A DNA stretch of 64,000 bases, taken from a virus. Taxonomy: Duplodnaviria > Heunggongvirae > Uroviricota > Caudoviricetes. A program made the translations under genes and the position numbers. The notes under the pieces were generated by a model. It did not search any database and was not told the origin of the DNA. It saw nothing but the letters and a program-made list of their open reading frames with translations. Shown here piece after piece: positions 57,934-64,000 of this stretch; within the stretch, counting starts at the first letter, position 1, and each line of letters starts with the position of its first letter. The stretch lies in IMG/VR virus record IMGVR_UViG_2700989507_000006. One strand, written 5' to 3'.

Positions 57934-60921
57934 ATGAGCTTAAGCGATCAGGTGGTGATGGCCACCAGCATAGAAACGCTGATCGAGCTGCTAAAAAACC
58001 TGCCCGATTACGGGCGGGTTTCGTATGTGGTGACAGCGAAGGGAGACGAGGTAAAAACAGCGTTTGATATCGTCGATGCCTCAACTCTTTTGGTATCCAA
58101 TACTCTGGACGGGAAAATTAATCCGGACTATCCCCAGGAACTTCAGCCGCGCGACCGGACCCGCGCATCCAGCCTTCTTCAGGTTAACCAGATATCCAAG
58201 GATTTGCGGCCTGCTCAGCTTACCGATTCCGGTCTATCCAGCCATGGCGCGCCGATAATTGGTGAGGACAATGCCGTTGAGTCAGGTAATGGACGGACCA
58301 TGGGGATCATTAAAGCCTATCAGGACGGCAATGCGGATCGGTATCGGGAGTACCTGATTGAACATGCGAGCGAATTCGGCATACGTCCTGAAAAGGTTGA
58401 ATCAATGACGGCTCCGGTACTGGTGCGCCGCCGGTTAACTAAGGTTGACCGCGTTCAGTTTGCCAAAGACTCAAATATTTCTGATCTTCAGGAAATGGCA
58501 GCCAGTGAAAAGGCTTTTGTTGATGCCGACAGCATAACACCGGCGATGATGGCGCTGTTTAATCCGTCAGAAAGCGGAGATCTGCTTAGCCGCAGTAATG
58601 ACGCGTTTATTCGCGGATTCATGACGCAAGTTGGTGCCACACAGGCTGCTGGCCTTGTAACGGAAGATGGGCGACCAACGCGGCAACTTGTTGACCGTAT
58701 ACAAAACGCGATCTTTGCCAAGGCATATAAGGATGCGCGCCTGGTAAGGATGGTTGCAGAAGAACCTGATCCGGATATGCGTAATGTTCTGACGGCGCTT
58801 AATGCGGCGGCCAATGATTTTGTACAGATGCAGGCTTTATCAGGAGAAGCGCACAAGCAGGCTGTGACAACTATCGTTGATGGTATTGAAACAGCGGATA
58901 GCCTCGATAAAAAGGCGCTGGCGGCATTGAAAGATGCGGTAGACCTGGTAAGGCAATCGAAGGAGTCAGGCCAACATATTACCGATGTTATTGCTCAGGG
59001 GGATATGTTCAGCGAAACGGCCCCGGAAGTGAAAGCACTCGCGTTGTTTATCGTCGCGAATAACCGTAGCGCGAAGCGTATGGCCACCGCCTTTAAGTTG
59101 ATGGCGCAACGTATCAATGATGAGTTACAGCACCAGGGCCAGGCGCTCGGGGATATGTTTGGCGGCGGTGATGTGTCGTTACAGGATATCCTTCGCCAGG
59201 TGTCTCAGGAACTGGAAAACGAAGGCATGCAAGGGATATCCGGCGGTCTTTTCGAGTCCGTTTCCGGCGGTAGTTACAACGGCGTTGCTCCATATACCAG
59301 TTTGCTATTACATCGGGCATCCGGCACCAAAGACATTATTCATCTGATCAGGCTGCTTTCCCGTACAGATCCCCAGGATGAACAGCTTGTTCAAGTGCTT
59401 GCGCATTTTGTTCGAATGCCTGTTGCCGACGTGAAAAAATGGTGCCGATTATTCGGTATCAGCAATTCGTTACTTCGCGGCTTGTTAAATCACGCATCCT
59501 CCCTTGGGCGCGATGGCTTTGACGAGATAGCGCAGGCGATAAAAAACGGAGATATGCCACCAGCTATTGACTGGTTTTCCATTCGCCCAACCAGGGTGAA
59601 AGCATTCCTTAGCGCGGCGCAATCAGCATCACCATTGGCAGAAATGGTTCAGAGGTTATCGCTCATATTCACAGACCATACCGCGTTGGGTGATCTGACT
59701 CTGGACGAGATGAAGGAAGCCTCCATTCAGTGGGCCGATCAACAAAATGAGGTTAACTCAGACTTCTTGCCAGCATTCAGGAAGGCCGTTAGTAAAGCGG
59801 ATGATGCCCGTGGAATTCTGAAGGCATTTAAGGCATTGCAAAGTCGTGTTAATAAACATGTCGGTGATATCGATGGGGTAACGGCGGAAGGCCGGGATAT
59901 CCTTAAAGAGCACGGCATAACGCCAGAGTTTATTGATGAGATCAGGACTGATATGCAGCGTGAGGTCGTATCGTCCCTGCAAATCGTAGCCAGAGCGTTG
60001 GCGGATGCTAATCCGAAGAGTGCGGCCATTGTTAACCGTGTTATTGGTGATATTGAAGCATCGGAGGGCATGGGGGCGCTGAAACTCTTCCTTTCGCGAG
60101 CGTTTAATCCTAACGGCAATATTCTCCCCAGCATTATTGGTGAGGCTAAAAAGCATGTCAGTGAAGAAGAACTTGAGCTGCTTAACCAGCTACTCAATCG
60201 ATTTTCATATATCCCGCAGAAACGCTGGCAAATGAATCAGCGAAGTATGGATTCGGTCTACGAGAAAGTGTTATCTGCCATGAACAGTGCGATCGCCAAC
60301 TCATCTGTATCAGAAGAAAAAGCTCTTGAGTGGGCCGACTCTTTTATCACGGAAGAAGTGGAAGAAGCCCGCGCTGGACAGAATGGTGGAATAGACTTGC
60401 GCAAGGAACTTGCTGATATTTATCGCCTGACCGGCGGGAAAATATCAACCTTATCAAGGGTAATTCACCACAAGGGTAGGGCGTATGCAAATCTTAATGG
60501 TGTTGTTGCTGTCGATTTGCACGATGAAAATGCAAATGCACTGTGGCACGAGCTGGGTCATCATCTTGAGTACAGTAACCCGGGGTTGTTAGAGAAAGCC
60601 AGGTCATTCCTGAAGGCCAATGTTGAAGGGGATAAGCCATCTTTCGTTAATATCGGTGGGCGTGGCAAGCCTGAATGGTGCTTCAGATCTCGATTGAGTG
60701 ATATTTATATGGCGAAGGTATACCCGCCAGCCTCAGTAAGTAACACCGGGAAAATTCGGCAGAAATCACCGACTATTTCCAAAACGTCAGCAACGGAAGT
60801 ATTCTCTATGGCTCTTCAGTTGTATCATGACAAAGAGGCCGCTGCCGCATCACTGATGAATGGTGACGGATTGCTGGAACTGTTATTAGGTGTGGCAAAG
60901 GAGCTAAATAATGCAGATTAA
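57934..60921 (+). CDS. large dar-operon protein with C-terminal HExxH zinc-metallopeptidase-like motif
   Basis: 995 aa; LWHELGHHLEYSNPG at 60547-60564 region; otherwise helical with no other recognised motif. Confidence 0.5.
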   Translation: MSLSDQVVMATSIETLIELLKNLPDYGRVSYVVTAKGDEVKTAFDIVDASTLLVSNTLDGKINPDYPQELQPRDRTRASSLLQVNQISKDLRPAQLTDSGLSSHGAPIIGEDNAVESGNGRTMGIIKAYQDGNADRYREYLIEHASEFGIRPEKVESMTAPVLVRRRLTKVDRVQFAKDSNISDLQEMAASEKAFVDADSITPAMMALFNPSESGDLLSRSNDAFIRGFMTQVGATQAAGLVTEDGRPTRQLVDRIQNAIFAKAYKDARLVRMVAEEPDPDMRNVLTALNAAANDFVQMQALSGEAHKQAVTTIVDGIETADSLDKKALAALKDAVDLVRQSKESGQHITDVIAQGDMFSETAPEVKALALFIVANNRSAKRMATAFKLMAQRINDELQHQGQALGDMFGGGDVSLQDILRQVSQELENEGMQGISGGLFESVSGGSYNGVAPYTSLLLHRASGTKDIIHLIRLLSRTDPQDEQLVQVLAHFVRMPVADVKKWCRLFGISNSLLRGLLNHASSLGRDGFDEIAQAIKNGDMPPAIDWFSIRPTRVKAFLSAAQSASPLAEMVQRLSLIFTDHTALGDLTLDEMKEASIQWADQQNEVNSDFLPAFRKAVSKADDARGILKAFKALQSRVNKHVGDIDGVTAEGRDILKEHGITPEFIDEIRTDMQREVVSSLQIVARALADANPKSAAIVNRVIGDIEASEGMGALKLFLSRAFNPNGNILPSIIGEAKKHVSEEELELLNQLLNRFSYIPQKRWQMNQRSMDSVYEKVLSAMNSAIANSSVSEEKALEWADSFITEEVEEARAGQNGGIDLRKELADIYRLTGGKISTLSRVIHHKGRAYANLNGVVAVDLHDENANALWHELGHHLEYSNPGLLEKARSFLKANVEGDKPSFVNIGGRGKPEWCFRSRLSDIYMAKVYPPASVSNTGKIRQKSPTISKTSATEVFSMALQLYHDKEAAAASLMNGDGLLELLLGVAKELNNAD

Positions 60922-61222
60922 AATCGCAGCGCCATTAGGCGGAGATGCCATTATCGAATTTGATGATAATGAAGAAGTTTCCGGGCGTTTAAGCATTATC
61001 TCCGGTGACATTACCGAGGACATGATCGCTGAAGCCATAGTTGGGGCAAATCCCAATAGCTATATGGGATTCGTTAATACCCTTGATGCTCCCGCAAGTG
61101 ATGTTCTCCGAACGCTGCATCTTTACGCTGGCTGGTTTGTTGATTGGCCAGCAGTAGATGGTGGTGATGAGGACGACGACGACGATGATTTTGGTGATCA
61201 TGTAGACCAGATCGTATATTGA
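60911..61222 (+). CDS. small protein with poly-Asp C-terminal tail
   Basis: 103 aa ending DGGDEDDDDDDFGDHVDQIVY; last gene before terminator. Confidence 0.4.
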   Translation: MQIKIAAPLGGDAIIEFDDNEEVSGRLSIISGDITEDMIAEAIVGANPNSYMGFVNTLDAPASDVLRTLHLYAGWFVDWPAVDGGDEDDDDDDFGDHVDQIVY

Positions 61223-61224
61223 AG

Positions 61225-61251
61225 AAATCCCGCCAATCGGCGGGATTTTTA
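61225..61251. terminator. bidirectional intrinsic terminator
   Basis: aaatcccgccaatcggcgggattt stem-loop then ttttt; convergent operons meet here. Confidence 0.55.
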
Positions 61252-61253
61252 CC

Positions 61254-62348
61254 TCACGAGAAGCTCTTTTCTGATGTCAGCCAACAGTGCTCGTGCAAAT
61301 CTCTTGGTGGTTTTTCGACAAATGCCTCTTCAGCTACATCCCGCCAGGGAATTTGTTTAGCCCATTCAGCTATAGCGTTATGGTTTGCTGAGAATAACGG
61401 TATTGTATAGGCTTTCAGCCAGTCTAATGTGCTGGAGTTGTGTTTTTGAGCGTGATGTTTCGCATGGTGTTTGGCGATCACGATCGTAGGCACTACCCAT
61501 TTACTACCGTCAGTCATTGTGAAGTGCATATTACGGGGAACAGATGATTTTTCCATCAACTCCCGAATCCCAGGGAATTTCCCCAAGATCAATCGGCGAT
61601 ATTTATCGCTATTGCACCCACCAAACTCTTTGGCTTTATATTCAAGATATGCTTCAGAAACGAGAGGTGAATCCTCTGTGCTGAGAGTTATAGCCGTGAA
61701 AATACCAGCAGGATTGTTCTCACTATGGGCCAACCGGTGATGCGAATCATAAAAATACCCTTTCTCTCGTTCCGATGGTTTCGACAGCAACAGCAGGCGC
61801 GAATCATAACCGGTCAAATTGCCTGTTATCACAGCATGAGCGCGGTCGCTGATTTCTGCCGCGTTAATAACGATGAAGAGATCATGCGGCCCAGTAAAAC
61901 CAGCCAGAGATTCTTCGTTATTCAGACAATAGTTTAAATATACACATCCCCATGCTTCACTGATATGTACCAACCCTTTTTCAGGGTGCAGTTTGAAATG
62001 ATTGCCAAGAAAAGGGTGTTTCTTGATAACCTGCGCCCAATAACAGCACATATAGTCAATTATATTGTTTCGACTATCGTTAATAGCAGGAGAAACAACC
62101 ACTGTACGGGAACACGAATACAGTATTGTTTGCAGGATGCTAATCACTGCCACAATAGAGGTTTCCCCAATACCATGTGGTGTGGTGGCAGTGACTTTGG
62201 CTCCGGTGTTCTTTATCGCGTTAATAATTTTTGCTTGATGAGGTGTTAACTTAATATCAAGCAACTCTTTTGCTGCCAGTTCCCAATTGTCTTTATACCG
62301 TTCTATCAGTGCTAACCAGGCAGATTCATTCTGTATACGATTAATCAC
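61254..62348 (-). CDS. hypothetical protein
   Basis: 364-aa ORF, last gene of ssb operon; Cys/His-rich; no confident family. Confidence 0.5.
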   Translation of the reverse strand: MINRIQNESAWLALIERYKDNWELAAKELLDIKLTPHQAKIINAIKNTGAKVTATTPHGIGETSIVAVISILQTILYSCSRTVVVSPAINDSRNNIIDYMCCYWAQVIKKHPFLGNHFKLHPEKGLVHISEAWGCVYLNYCLNNEESLAGFTGPHDLFIVINAAEISDRAHAVITGNLTGYDSRLLLLSKPSEREKGYFYDSHHRLAHSENNPAGIFTAITLSTEDSPLVSEAYLEYKAKEFGGCNSDKYRRLILGKFPGIRELMEKSSVPRNMHFTMTDGSKWVVPTIVIAKHHAKHHAQKHNSSTLDWLKAYTIPLFSANHNAIAEWAKQIPWRDVAEEAFVEKPPRDLHEHCWLTSEKSFS

Positions 62349-63135
62349 TTTCCACCTCTTCCGTGGTGTTTTCTTGCAGTTCTGTTAATGCAGCACGACA
62401 CAGGTTCCGGGCATTGGCTATAGCCACACTTTTTACCTCATCCGTCATTGTGCAGGTAATGTACTGATCGAGTTCTTCAGCTCGGATGATGCTTTTCCCA
62501 ATCATAAACTCTATTTGCCAGAGCAGATCGGCATCCATCGTCAGTATTTCAGCCTGGCCTTCTGGGCCTGCGGGGAAGCAAACATAAGACTGTTTGCCCA
62601 GGCCGATAACTCGACAACTTGCTTCAAGAATTGCACGCTTGAGGTCTAACTTTGTAACTGAAACAGGTTGATTTTCACCTGTGATTACGCCATTGACATG
62701 GACGTGGAAGGGCATGTAGCTTGAAATTCGCTCTACTTTCCATACGCCAGCAAGCGATCCTTCATGCAGCACAATGGGGGTAACCGCGAGTTTCATCTCA
62801 CCATATAACTGCTGGCAGATAGCTGGATTGCTGAATACATCCAAAGGTTCACACTCAAACAGCGGCGCAATCTGCATGAGGTCCATCATGGTCATACCAG
62901 GGGTACGAGCAGTAATGAATCTGCGCATTCCAGTATCCATTGTGCGCCAGATAGCTACACCATGCTTTTTGCTCACTTCTTCAGTAAAGCCAAGGTGGCA
63001 CATGATGGTTTTTTCGATAGCCAGATCAGAGATAGAAACCTTTTCGCCTGGCACTCCATCATTATTGATGGTCACTTCGACACTCTGGCCATTACGTAGG
63101 CGGTATTGAATGGTTTTAGTATTTTGTGCTGTCAT
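62341..63135 (-). CDS. hypothetical protein
   Basis: 264-aa ORF between ssb and the 364-aa gene; 8-nt overlap with downstream gene. Confidence 0.5.
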   Translation of the reverse strand: MTAQNTKTIQYRLRNGQSVEVTINNDGVPGEKVSISDLAIEKTIMCHLGFTEEVSKKHGVAIWRTMDTGMRRFITARTPGMTMMDLMQIAPLFECEPLDVFSNPAICQQLYGEMKLAVTPIVLHEGSLAGVWKVERISSYMPFHVHVNGVITGENQPVSVTKLDLKRAILEASCRVIGLGKQSYVCFPAGPEGQAEILTMDADLLWQIEFMIGKSIIRAEELDQYITCTMTDEVKSVAIANARNLCRAALTELQENTTEEVESD

Positions 63136-63232
63136 AGTCTTTTCTCTGCTTAAAAACTGATGTATTGCGCCTTCAGGTTGGTTAGGAATGTTTTCCCACC
63201 AGCGAAAGCAATATCTCGGGGTGTTCTATTCG

Positions 63233-63721
63233 TTAAAACGGAATATCGTCTTCAAAGTCCATTGGAGGTTCGTTATTGGCGTTGCTCTGAGGTTTACCGC
63301 CACCGCTGTATTGCTGGTGGTTTTGAGGTTGGTTTGACTGCCCCCAGCCATTTGAGGACTGTGAATCGTCGCGGCGAGCGCCGATCATTTGCATGGTGCC
63401 GCCCTGGCTGACGATAATTTCCGTCGTGTAACGTTCTACACCGGCGTCATCTGTCCACTTACGGGTTTTAAGTTTCCCTTCGATGTAGACCTGAGAACCT
63501 TTTCGTAAATATTCACTCGCAATTTCAGCAAGTTTTCCGAACAAAACGACTTTATGCCATTCTGTTTGCTCTTTCTGTTGGCCCGTTTGCTTGTCGCGCC
63601 ATGATTCATTCGTTGCGATGCTGAGTCTTCCGACCGCTCCGCCATTTGGTATATACCTGATCTCCGGGTCTTGCCCCAGGGTACCAATCAGGATGACTTT
63701 GTTTACACCGCGTTGTGCCAC
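63233..63721 (-). CDS. ssb: single-stranded DNA-binding protein
   Basis: 162 aa; OB-fold N-domain, Gly/Gln-rich linker, acidic C-terminal tail ending DDIPF. Confidence 0.9.
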
Positions 63722-63740
63722 TTATCTTACCTAATAAAAT

Positions 63741-63757
63741 AAATTAATTAGAGCAAT
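63741..63757 (-). promoter_or_regulatory. C1-repressor operator (ATTGCTCTAATTAATTT)
   Basis: 16/17 match, ~20 nt upstream of ssb start. Confidence 0.55.
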
Positions 63758-63890
63758 AATGTATATCTTTGAAACGTAGCTAACAAGTGATTTGCATTAT
63801 CCTGTGCCTTCTAAAGGGATCGAGTCAGTCGGTATTGGCTGTGAATGGGTGTTTGTCCTGGAGCGTAAAAAATTCGCTTATGAGGTCTTT

Positions 63891-64000
63891 ATGAAGGGAA
63901 AAACAGCCGCAGGAGGCGGTGCAATTTGCGCTATCGCGGTGATGATTACCATCGTGATGGGTAATGGCAATGTGCGAACCAACCAGGCGGGGCTTGAGCT
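63891..64000 (+). CDS. small membrane protein, N-terminal part (runs off window end)
   Basis: ATG 63891 after GAGG RBS; MKGKTAAGGGAICAIAVMITIVMGNG hydrophobic start. Confidence 0.35.
   Translation, partial: MKGKTAAGGGAICAIAVMITIVMGNGNVRTNQAGLE

Follow-up and report, generated by a model that had tools for sequence, protein, structure and literature searches.

What are the two genes that follow ssb in a P1-like phage-plasmid, and what might they do there? The question is raised by a stretch of 64,000 nucleotides, IMG/VR virus record IMGVR_UViG_2700989507_000006 (referred to as the window in its full length), in which two open reading frames (ORFs) of 264 and 364 amino acids (aa) lie downstream of ssb. 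The initial annotation of this DNA placed both ORFs, which lie on the minus strand, exactly and described them as unassigned genes without a recognizable motif. Judged from sequence, ORF264 is the orthologue of IsaA of phage P1, and ORF364 is paralogous to the ATPase domain of PacB, the large terminase of the phage itself, and is predicted to be catalytically dead. The identities and the architecture proposed for the isaA/ORF364 region are held with high confidence; the function of the two proteins is a separate matter, on which the readings discussed further below carry much lower probabilities. The features in question are the following.

61254-62348, minus strand: ORF364 (364 aa), directly after isaA.
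61566-62339, minus strand: residues 4-261 of ORF364, a PacB/TerL-type ATPase domain with ablated catalytic motifs (BLASTP, hhalign, Foldseek).
61254-61565, minus strand: residues 262-364 of ORF364 and the stop codon, a separate domain of ~90 aa that is not a TerL nuclease and is not aligned to PacB by hhalign.
62341-63135, minus strand: isaA, equal to ORF264 (264 aa), orthologue of P1 IsaA, phrog_2326.

The relationship between ORF364 and PacB emerged from sequence, profile, and structure comparisons. In tblastn searches, residues 11-272 of ORF364 share 35-36% identity with PacB of P1, P7, SJ46, RCS47, and D6 (E 3e-44 to 8e-48), and the BLASTP alignment with P1 PacB is colinear (residues 11-272 with 11-274; 35% identity, E 2e-52). 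Alignment by hhalign pairs residues 4-261 colinearly with residues 5-261 of PacB (probability 100%, E 1.9e-52), and ORF364 also matches phrog_2 (E 9e-9); PacB, the large subunit of the pacase, is assigned to phrog_5902 and phrog_2. The AlphaFold model of ORF364 has a predicted local distance difference test score (pLDDT) of >85 at residues 10-260, and its top Foldseek matches are TerL ATPase domains, namely those of Sf6 gp2 (1.5e-9), P74-26, T4 gp17, and D6E. The statement that ORF364 contains no motif thus gives way to a PacB/TerL ATPase-domain paralogue found by profile and structure searches. A word-indexed protein search with ORF364 returned three relatives and missed PacB, which emerged only from tblastn against phage genomes. 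A scan of genome contigs with the D6-type homologue (see below) as query yielded no matches, and no match to pacB was found in the window.

The catalytic motifs of the ATPase domain are not preserved in ORF364. Its Walker A motif reads TPHGIGET, compared with SGHGTGKS in PacB and SGHGCGKS in the consensus of 37 TerLs, at least 90% of which have the lysine. Walker B reads FIVINAAEI instead of the YIIDEASGV of PacB, and the D6-type alleles have IIVDSAH at this site. Neither the Walker A lysine nor the Walker B glutamate is present in any of the 34 ORF364 alleles from IMG/VR. The whole nuclease domain, with its motif DVARYGDD, is missing as well: the hhalign alignment ends at residue 261, and ORF364 comprises 364 aa versus 494 aa in PacB. 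The genomic context also differs, because ORF364 stands between isaA and hxr, within the ssb operon and not in the packaging module beside pacA or the portal gene; it lies behind an early promoter, whereas pacAB in P1 adjoins c1 and has a late promoter. The possibility that ORF364 is an active, non-canonical terminase was rejected on these grounds. Four of the five defining features (Walker A, Walker B, nuclease, and genomic context) are not found, and the N-terminal ASCE ATPase domain with homology to TerL is the sole terminase feature that ORF364 possesses. The label "terminase large subunit", which this protein carries in MH422554 and MH445380, is a mis-annotation. It was also considered whether ORF364 represents the intact version of the gene broken by IS1 in P1; this is ruled out, because ORF364 is unrelated to P1 IsaB.

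The pattern of substitutions indicates that ORF364 is under purifying selection and is a maintained gene. Each of the 34 IMG/VR alleles encodes an intact protein of 364 or 362 aa, and the ratio of nonsynonymous to synonymous substitution rates (dN/dS) is 0.2-0.37 for divergent allele pairs and about 0.25 overall. The corresponding values are 0.08-0.16 for most allele pairs of isaA, with 0.24 in the closest pair, and 0.04-0.13 for ssb. Since every allele examined is intact and dN/dS is low, ORF264 and ORF364 are both real genes. Within ORF364, regional dN/dS amounts to 0.12-0.38 outside residues 91-146, including several regions at 0.12-0.17. Residues 91-146 (window positions 61913-62078) show a local dN/dS of 0.68, and 18 of these 56 positions are variable among the 15 distinct P1-type alleles. 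This segment could be a fast-evolving interaction surface.

The C-terminal domain of ORF364, for which the AlphaFold confidence is low, is a mobile domain found otherwise in phage replication/recombination modules. It is homologous to the stand-alone 98-aa product of gene_35 in the Cronobacter P1-like phage JK004 (locus L025, positions 3010-3306), a gene that lies two genes past the DnaB/Ban helicase gene. It also forms the C-terminus of the 471-aa phrog_17928 proteins in Xanthomonas CP2-like phages, whose genes lie in a recombination module together with those for a recombinase, an exonuclease, and SSB. In the Xanthomonas phage Tenjo (L026, positions 1385-2800), the domain is fused to an N-terminal region of 370 aa with a weak match to DUF1351. 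A Trp-rich core is conserved across the domain, and its His residues are not.

The assignment of ORF264 is more straightforward. The protein agrees with P1 IsaA as annotated (P1_gp017, YP_006486; aa 57-320) in 259 of 264 residues (98% identity), matches phrog_2326 over its full length (E 1e-149; the profile is 264 positions long), and is encoded directly 3' of ssb, in the position of isaA in P1. The name IsaA reflects the position beside IS1. ORF264 is therefore no longer unassigned: orthology to a P1 gene at the same position holds, and only orthology to a characterized one does not, as IsaA has been named and, to our knowledge, never characterized, and we know of no function for it. The RefSeq version of P1 IsaA differs from that of the window (264 aa) by 56 extra N-terminal residues (320 aa, GTG start). 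Both the window and MH422554 have a TAG codon that closes the frame of this extension, so the extension probably is an annotation artefact and 264 aa the true length. The same N-terminus of 56 residues, which stems from the conserved spacer next to ssb and again has a GTG start, is annotated in the Tad2-like protein of SJ46 (J46_0048, 281 aa; L002 positions 7228-7395 for P1, L005 positions 3720-3887 for SJ46), where it probably is an artefact too; the Tad2-like gene of Ro157c2 is annotated at 225 aa.

Exhaustive HMMER searches delineated a small but real IsaA family of proteins with 250-310 aa, which extends down to 24-33% identity, and within the P1/D6 supergroup of phage-plasmids isaA is both old and conserved. 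The AlphaFold model built from the family alignment reached a pLDDT of 87.6 and a predicted template modelling score (pTM) of 0.83. Fold searches with this model retrieved only uncharacterized small phage proteins and generic dsRBD-like folds; the predicted fold is thus a confident one but functionally uninformative. The invariant residues (Y11, G126, L128, W132, A168, G178, and D223) do not look like a catalytic set. Pfam gave zero matches for IsaA and ORF364, and sequence searches of the PDB gave nothing significant for IsaA, ORF364, or the IsaA family profile. Two candidate relationships of IsaA were dismissed. Kinship with Tad2-like proteins received a probability of 5.5% when the families were compared by hhalign, and neither IsaA nor ORF364 matches PF11195; hhalign also shows no relation between IsaA and ORF364's C-terminal domain.

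Together, isaA and ORF364 are a conserved, coupled pair that occurs in two phage-plasmid lineages and in two different operons. The 34 IMG/VR loci with ORF364 comprise 21 P1-type and 13 D6-type loci (12 of the latter evaluable), and one of the 34 (L049) has no upstream sequence. The remaining 33 all have isaA sequence directly before ORF364, and in 32 of them it is the full gene; among the P1-type loci, a full isaA followed by ORF364 is found in 20 of 21. In one IMG/VR locus (L037, positions 1956-2099), only the last 48 codons of isaA stand before ORF364, which may be due to an upstream insertion or truncation. Conversely, isaA often occurs without ORF364. As ORF364 follows isaA sequence in each of these loci and isaA often stands alone, the dependence is one-way, and ORF364 appears to need IsaA.

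The 13 D6-type loci encode ORF364 homologues at 51-53% identity. The gene order downstream of cre is a 113-aa gene, a 137-aa gene, a dUTPase gene, optionally a Tad2-like gene, the gene for an IsaA homologue (47%), and that for the ORF364 homologue (52%). In L055, the sole D6-type junction that was read, the IsaA and ORF364 genes overlap as well, with a sequence (ATGGCGACTAA) that differs from that of the window. Between the P1 and D6 lineages, ORF364 is conserved from end to end at 52% identity, the C-terminal domain included. In PLSDB, coverage of at least 80% is reached by 44 D6-like plasmids for the divergent array and by 120 of 338 matching records for the isaA-ORF364 stretch. Phage D6 encodes the dUTPase, a Tad2-like protein (orf114), and the IsaA homologue, and has no ORF364. 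Divergent P1/D6-like elements (L012, L014, L016, L017, and L061; positions ~1200-6000 in each) share an array downstream of a cre-like recombinase gene, which consists of a gene of ~110 aa, a gene of ~140-174 aa, an optional gene for a dUTPase or a dUTPase-Tad2 fusion, and the gene for an IsaA homologue; in L014, the dUTPase-Tad2 fusion adjoins the IsaA homologue. For the first two small proteins of this array, no Pfam matches are on record in the loci looked up.

When would the two proteins be made? The window derives from a P1-like phage-plasmid; its positions 59500-64000 (4.5 kb) are 96-97% identical to Punavirus records, and it contains eight matches to the C1 operator consensus versus 0.02 expected by chance. 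The features that frame the pair are listed here.

63741-63757, minus strand: C1 repressor operator (Ossb/Op21 of P1), ATTGCTCTAATTAATTT, with one mismatch to the C1 consensus and overlapping the ssb promoters.
63724-63786, minus strand: region matching the P1 promoters P1ssb and P2ssb (Pr21); coordinates from the P1 annotation, stretch identical to P1.
63233-63721, minus strand: ssb, the first gene of the operon (Pfam SSB, E 7e-40; annotated as ssb in P1 and relatives).
63136-63232, minus strand: spacer of 97 bp between ssb and isaA, with a deletion of 96 bp relative to P1 and MH422554.
62341-62348, minus strand: overlap of 8 nt between the isaA stop and the GTG start of ORF364, GTGATTAA, putative translational coupling.
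61225-61248, no strand assigned: GC-rich hairpin (10 bp) between the convergent ORF364 and hxr (dG -21.9 kcal/mol, z -3.26).
60911-61222, plus strand: hxr, the convergent neighbour and right-hand edge of the variable locus (phrog_2292; annotated as Hxr in P1).
63891-64000, plus strand: lyz (P1 endolysin), 5' end only, since the gene runs off the window; divergent from ssb; its 36 N-terminal residues are identical to P1 Lyz.

The initial annotation had assigned both ORFs to a C1-operator-controlled ssb operon, and the sequence supports this. The alignment to P1 upstream of ssb (161 bp) contains a single mismatch, which is located farther upstream; the Op21/Ossb operator and the promoter stretch are identical to P1; a consensus scan of the region gave no call of its own for P1ssb or P2ssb. 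On the minus strand, no terminator-like site was found from ssb through the end of ORF364, and no promoter-like site was detected between ssb and the two ORFs. The GTG start of ORF364 is preceded by GAGGTGG, and the annotated coordinates of P1-type alleles show the same 8-nt overlap with isaA. Transcription of isaA and ORF364 from the C1-controlled ssb promoter is a sound inference from their common strand, the short spacer free of such sites, the overlap, and the presence of a hairpin only past ORF364. This hairpin is likely a bidirectional terminator that closes the operon. Both proteins would then be made early, once C1 repression has been lifted, and alongside SSB.

In P1, MH422554, and the majority of relatives, the spacer between ssb and isaA measures about 193-195 bp, compared with 97 bp in the window. 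The deleted 96 bp are flanked by CGTTTT and GCTTTT microhomologies, and pESA138_1 of E. albertii (L020) has the same short form. In IMGVR_UViG_3300014523_000004 (L027), the products of ssb, isaA, ORF364, and hxr are 100% identical to those of the window; this record probably is the same element or a near-clonal relative. A minus-strand ORF of 132 aa at 59758-60156 lies inside ddrB on the opposite strand and equals P1 iddB in length (132 aa) and in its approximate position within ddrB.

How does this arrangement compare with reference P1? That the locus differs from it had been suspected because neither ORF looks like a lysozyme. The suspicion was right and the argument was not: lyz is present, starts at 63891 (plus strand), and points away from ssb just as it does in P1; what sets the locus apart is ORF364, which occupies the place of IS1 and isaB. 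P1 homology resumes at 61220. The position of isaA is shared with P1; IS1 and isaB in P1 and nmpC in P7 are found where ORF364 lies. The interval between ssb and hxr corresponds to variable region 2, or RD-2, which is described in PMC6906374 and PMC9603915 as a recombination hotspot of P1-like phage-plasmids. The contents of RD-2 are given there as P1 genes, unnamed ORFs, or a putative phosphohydrolase, and term searches of the two papers found no mention of a PacB-derived gene or of its pairing with isaA. The gene contents observed in this slot are as follows.

Window, MH422554, and ON470617: ssb, isaA, ORF364.
pE2865-1: ssb, Tad2-like gene, isaA, ORF364.
SJ46: ssb, Tad2-like gene, isaA.
Reference P1: ssb, isaA, IS1, isaB.
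pEC18-3: ssb, isaA, yjjJ (HipA-family kinase; L019, positions 1555-2859).
P7: ssb, nmpC (porin; L003, positions 5457-6572).
673R5: ssb, split dGTPase gene (defence gene, PADLOC E 9e-87; L004, positions 3002-4355).

The presence of the dGTPase, YjjJ, and NmpC indicates that defence, counter-defence, and surface genes all use this hotspot. The genes between ssb and isaA in SJ46, Ro157c2, and pE2865-1 encode Tad2 homologues (Pfam PF11195, E 3e-22; ModTad2/Tad2 in the PDB, E 9e-20). These Tad2-like neighbours, which frequently stand immediately before isaA, suggest an early counter-defence cassette. Of the functions first proposed for the two ORFs, a role in anti-defence is thus plausible, though no more than that, and it is so because sibling phages carry a homologue of the anti-Thoeris protein Tad2 in the same operon.

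What ORF364 does may be approached from what it has lost. Without the Walker lysine, the Asp-Glu pair, and the nuclease domain, the protein would be unable to hydrolyse ATP or to cut DNA and would act by binding rather than by catalysis. Together with IsaA, and as part of an early counter-defence cassette, it could imitate the terminase ATPase domain without being catalytic and might occupy or mislead a host factor that recognizes the PacB/TerL fold, such as an Avs-type terminase sensor. Such sensors exist, as TerL triggers Avs1-3 (PMC13581612, PMC11564622). An early counter-defence cassette that contains ORF364 as a terminase mimic is, as a whole, the best explanation that can be offered, and it is put forward tentatively. 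Mimicry in counter-defence, taken as a mechanism by itself, is somewhat unlikely. The most specific version, according to which ORF364 and IsaA would bind and neutralize Avs1-3-type STAND NTPases that sense the large terminase and would thus form a two-protein anti-defence system beside Tad2, must be called improbable.

Several points weigh against a counter-defence mimic. Binding to Avs normally activates the sensor, so that a decoy must bind without allowing oligomerization, and ORF364 lacks both the ATPase active site and the nuclease domain that the sensor reportedly contacts in the structure of Avs3 with terminase. The D6-like elements carry the pair downstream of cre and not in an ssb operon, and the replication modules in which the C-terminal domain otherwise occurs point elsewhere. 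As the same slot accommodates a dGTPase, the HipA-family kinase YjjJ, and a porin, it is a hotspot for cargo in general rather than an island dedicated to anti-defence, and guilt by association with Tad2 is weak evidence. PADLOC-DB 2.0 contained no family that matched IsaA or ORF364 at E values up to 1. The function suggested for the two proteins is founded on genomic association and early-operon placement. That P1 isaA is non-essential for lytic growth, as found by knock-down with CRISPR interference (PMC10695390), could be listed here too but is neutral.

Could ORF364 instead act on packaging? It might be a modulator or poison subunit that binds PacA, PacB, or the portal and that either curbs the phage's own pacase early, with no premature pac cleavage, or exerts a dominant-negative effect in the pentameric motor of P1/D6-type competitors. 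Inactive subunits are a classical poison of oligomeric ring ATPases, and ORF364 is most closely related to PacB of the phage itself, with which it is colinear over 260 residues and shares its most conserved stretch (aa 175-230, VITG..LLLS.P...GYFYDSHHRLA); moreover, the promoter of ORF364 is early and that of pacAB late. However, an identity of only ~35% to PacB of the P1 and D6 lineages alike provides no obvious discrimination between self and non-self, and expression only after C1 has been lifted would also poison the packaging of the phage itself. ORF364 is dispensable in any case, for reference P1, P7, SJ46, and D6 package without it, and both the obligate pairing with IsaA and the new C-terminal domain would be left unexplained. 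An effect on packaging is therefore considered rather unlikely. A reading close to one of those first proposed would make ORF364 an accessory of replication or recombination, tethered through its C-terminal domain to SSB, a DnaB-type helicase, or recombination proteins, with the dead ATPase domain as a scaffold that binds DNA or protein. The inferred co-transcription with ssb is in line with such a role, as are the DnaB/Ban helicase gene near this domain in JK004 and the recombinase, exonuclease, and SSB beside it in the Xanthomonas CP2-like phages. The pair in D6-like elements is not located beside ssb, however, but after cre, the dUTPase gene, and the Tad2-like gene; ORF364 is an accessory gene missing from many P1-like phages, and Pfam and PDB sequence searches detected no homology to known replication or recombination proteins. 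This role is distinctly unlikely.

The cargo of the hotspot, with its dGTPase and HipA-family kinase, and the tight two-gene layout reminiscent of small defence systems also bring to mind a defence or abortive-infection system of the prophage, in which IsaA and ORF364 might shield the lysogen from other phages and might, for example, sense or trap foreign packaging proteins. Such a system should be silent in lysogens, however, because the pair has no promoter of its own and belongs to a C1-repressed operon. Its immediate neighbour is an anti-defence gene rather than a defence gene, no PADLOC match was obtained, and no effector-type domain, such as a nuclease, TIR, Sir2, or membrane-spanning segment, was detected. 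A prophage defence system is thus very unlikely. Finally, ORF364 might be no more than the decaying, functionless remnant of a duplicated or captured pacB. Its missing catalytic motifs and nuclease domain, its absence from many relatives, and a dN/dS above that of isaA and ssb would agree with decay, but the full-length, intact state of all 34 alleles, the low dN/dS overall and especially in several regions, and the conservation between the P1 and D6 lineages, which includes the C-terminal domain and the overlapping junction with isaA, largely refute this idea and render it exceedingly improbable.

The isaA gene, the RD-2 hotspot, and the sequence of ORF364 (as a hypothetical protein or a mislabelled terminase) are already known. 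The literature searched describes neither a PacB paralogue nor a terminase decoy, and neither the identity of ORF364 as a dead PacB paralogue nor the family-wide catalytic loss under purifying selection, the strict pairing with isaA by overlapping genes in two phage-plasmid lineages, or the recurrent adjacency to Tad2 was found there; literature on structures 1R7L and 4PUP was uninformative. P1 is a workhorse among phages, and phage-plasmids of the P1 kind occur widely in E. coli and Salmonella. The identification of a dead PacB paralogue corrects the annotation of ORF364 as hypothetical or, wrongly, as a terminase, and isaA gains its first consistent genomic partners, with a Tad2-like gene upstream and a pseudo-terminase downstream. 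ORF364 also becomes a testable candidate for mimicry of a conserved phage "pattern" molecule. It may be relevant to how phages handle terminase-sensing immunity or to competition at the packaging step among related phage-plasmids. The isaA-ORF364 pair is an experimental lead and not a demonstrated new mechanism.

Two known systems offer themselves for comparison with the counter-defence mimic. Tad2 proteins (DUF2829, PF11195; PDB 8v3e and 9eib) are anti-Thoeris sponges whose homologues are encoded directly upstream of isaA in SJ46, Ro157c2, pE2865-1, D6, and the D6-like plasmids, whereas the window itself lacks a Tad2-like gene and neither of its two proteins is homologous to Tad2. With respect to Avs, a term search of a survey of 268 anti-defence proteins found two proteins directed against Avs, one a ligase and the other DprA-like, and no terminase-derived inhibitor; ORF364, if indeed an Avs decoy, would be the first case of decoy-type inhibition of a bacterial NLR-like sensor. 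The closest parallel is Ksap2, a small TerL-ATPase-like phage protein that is bound by KpAvs2 (PMC11564622). Ksap2 acts as a trigger and does not inhibit, and its sequence is unrelated to that of ORF364, so that the parallel is an analogy only. Like ORF364, however, it is a phage accessory protein that is not a terminase and has a terminase-ATPase-like fold, albeit a weak one, and it engages a receptor that senses terminase, as ORF364 might do.

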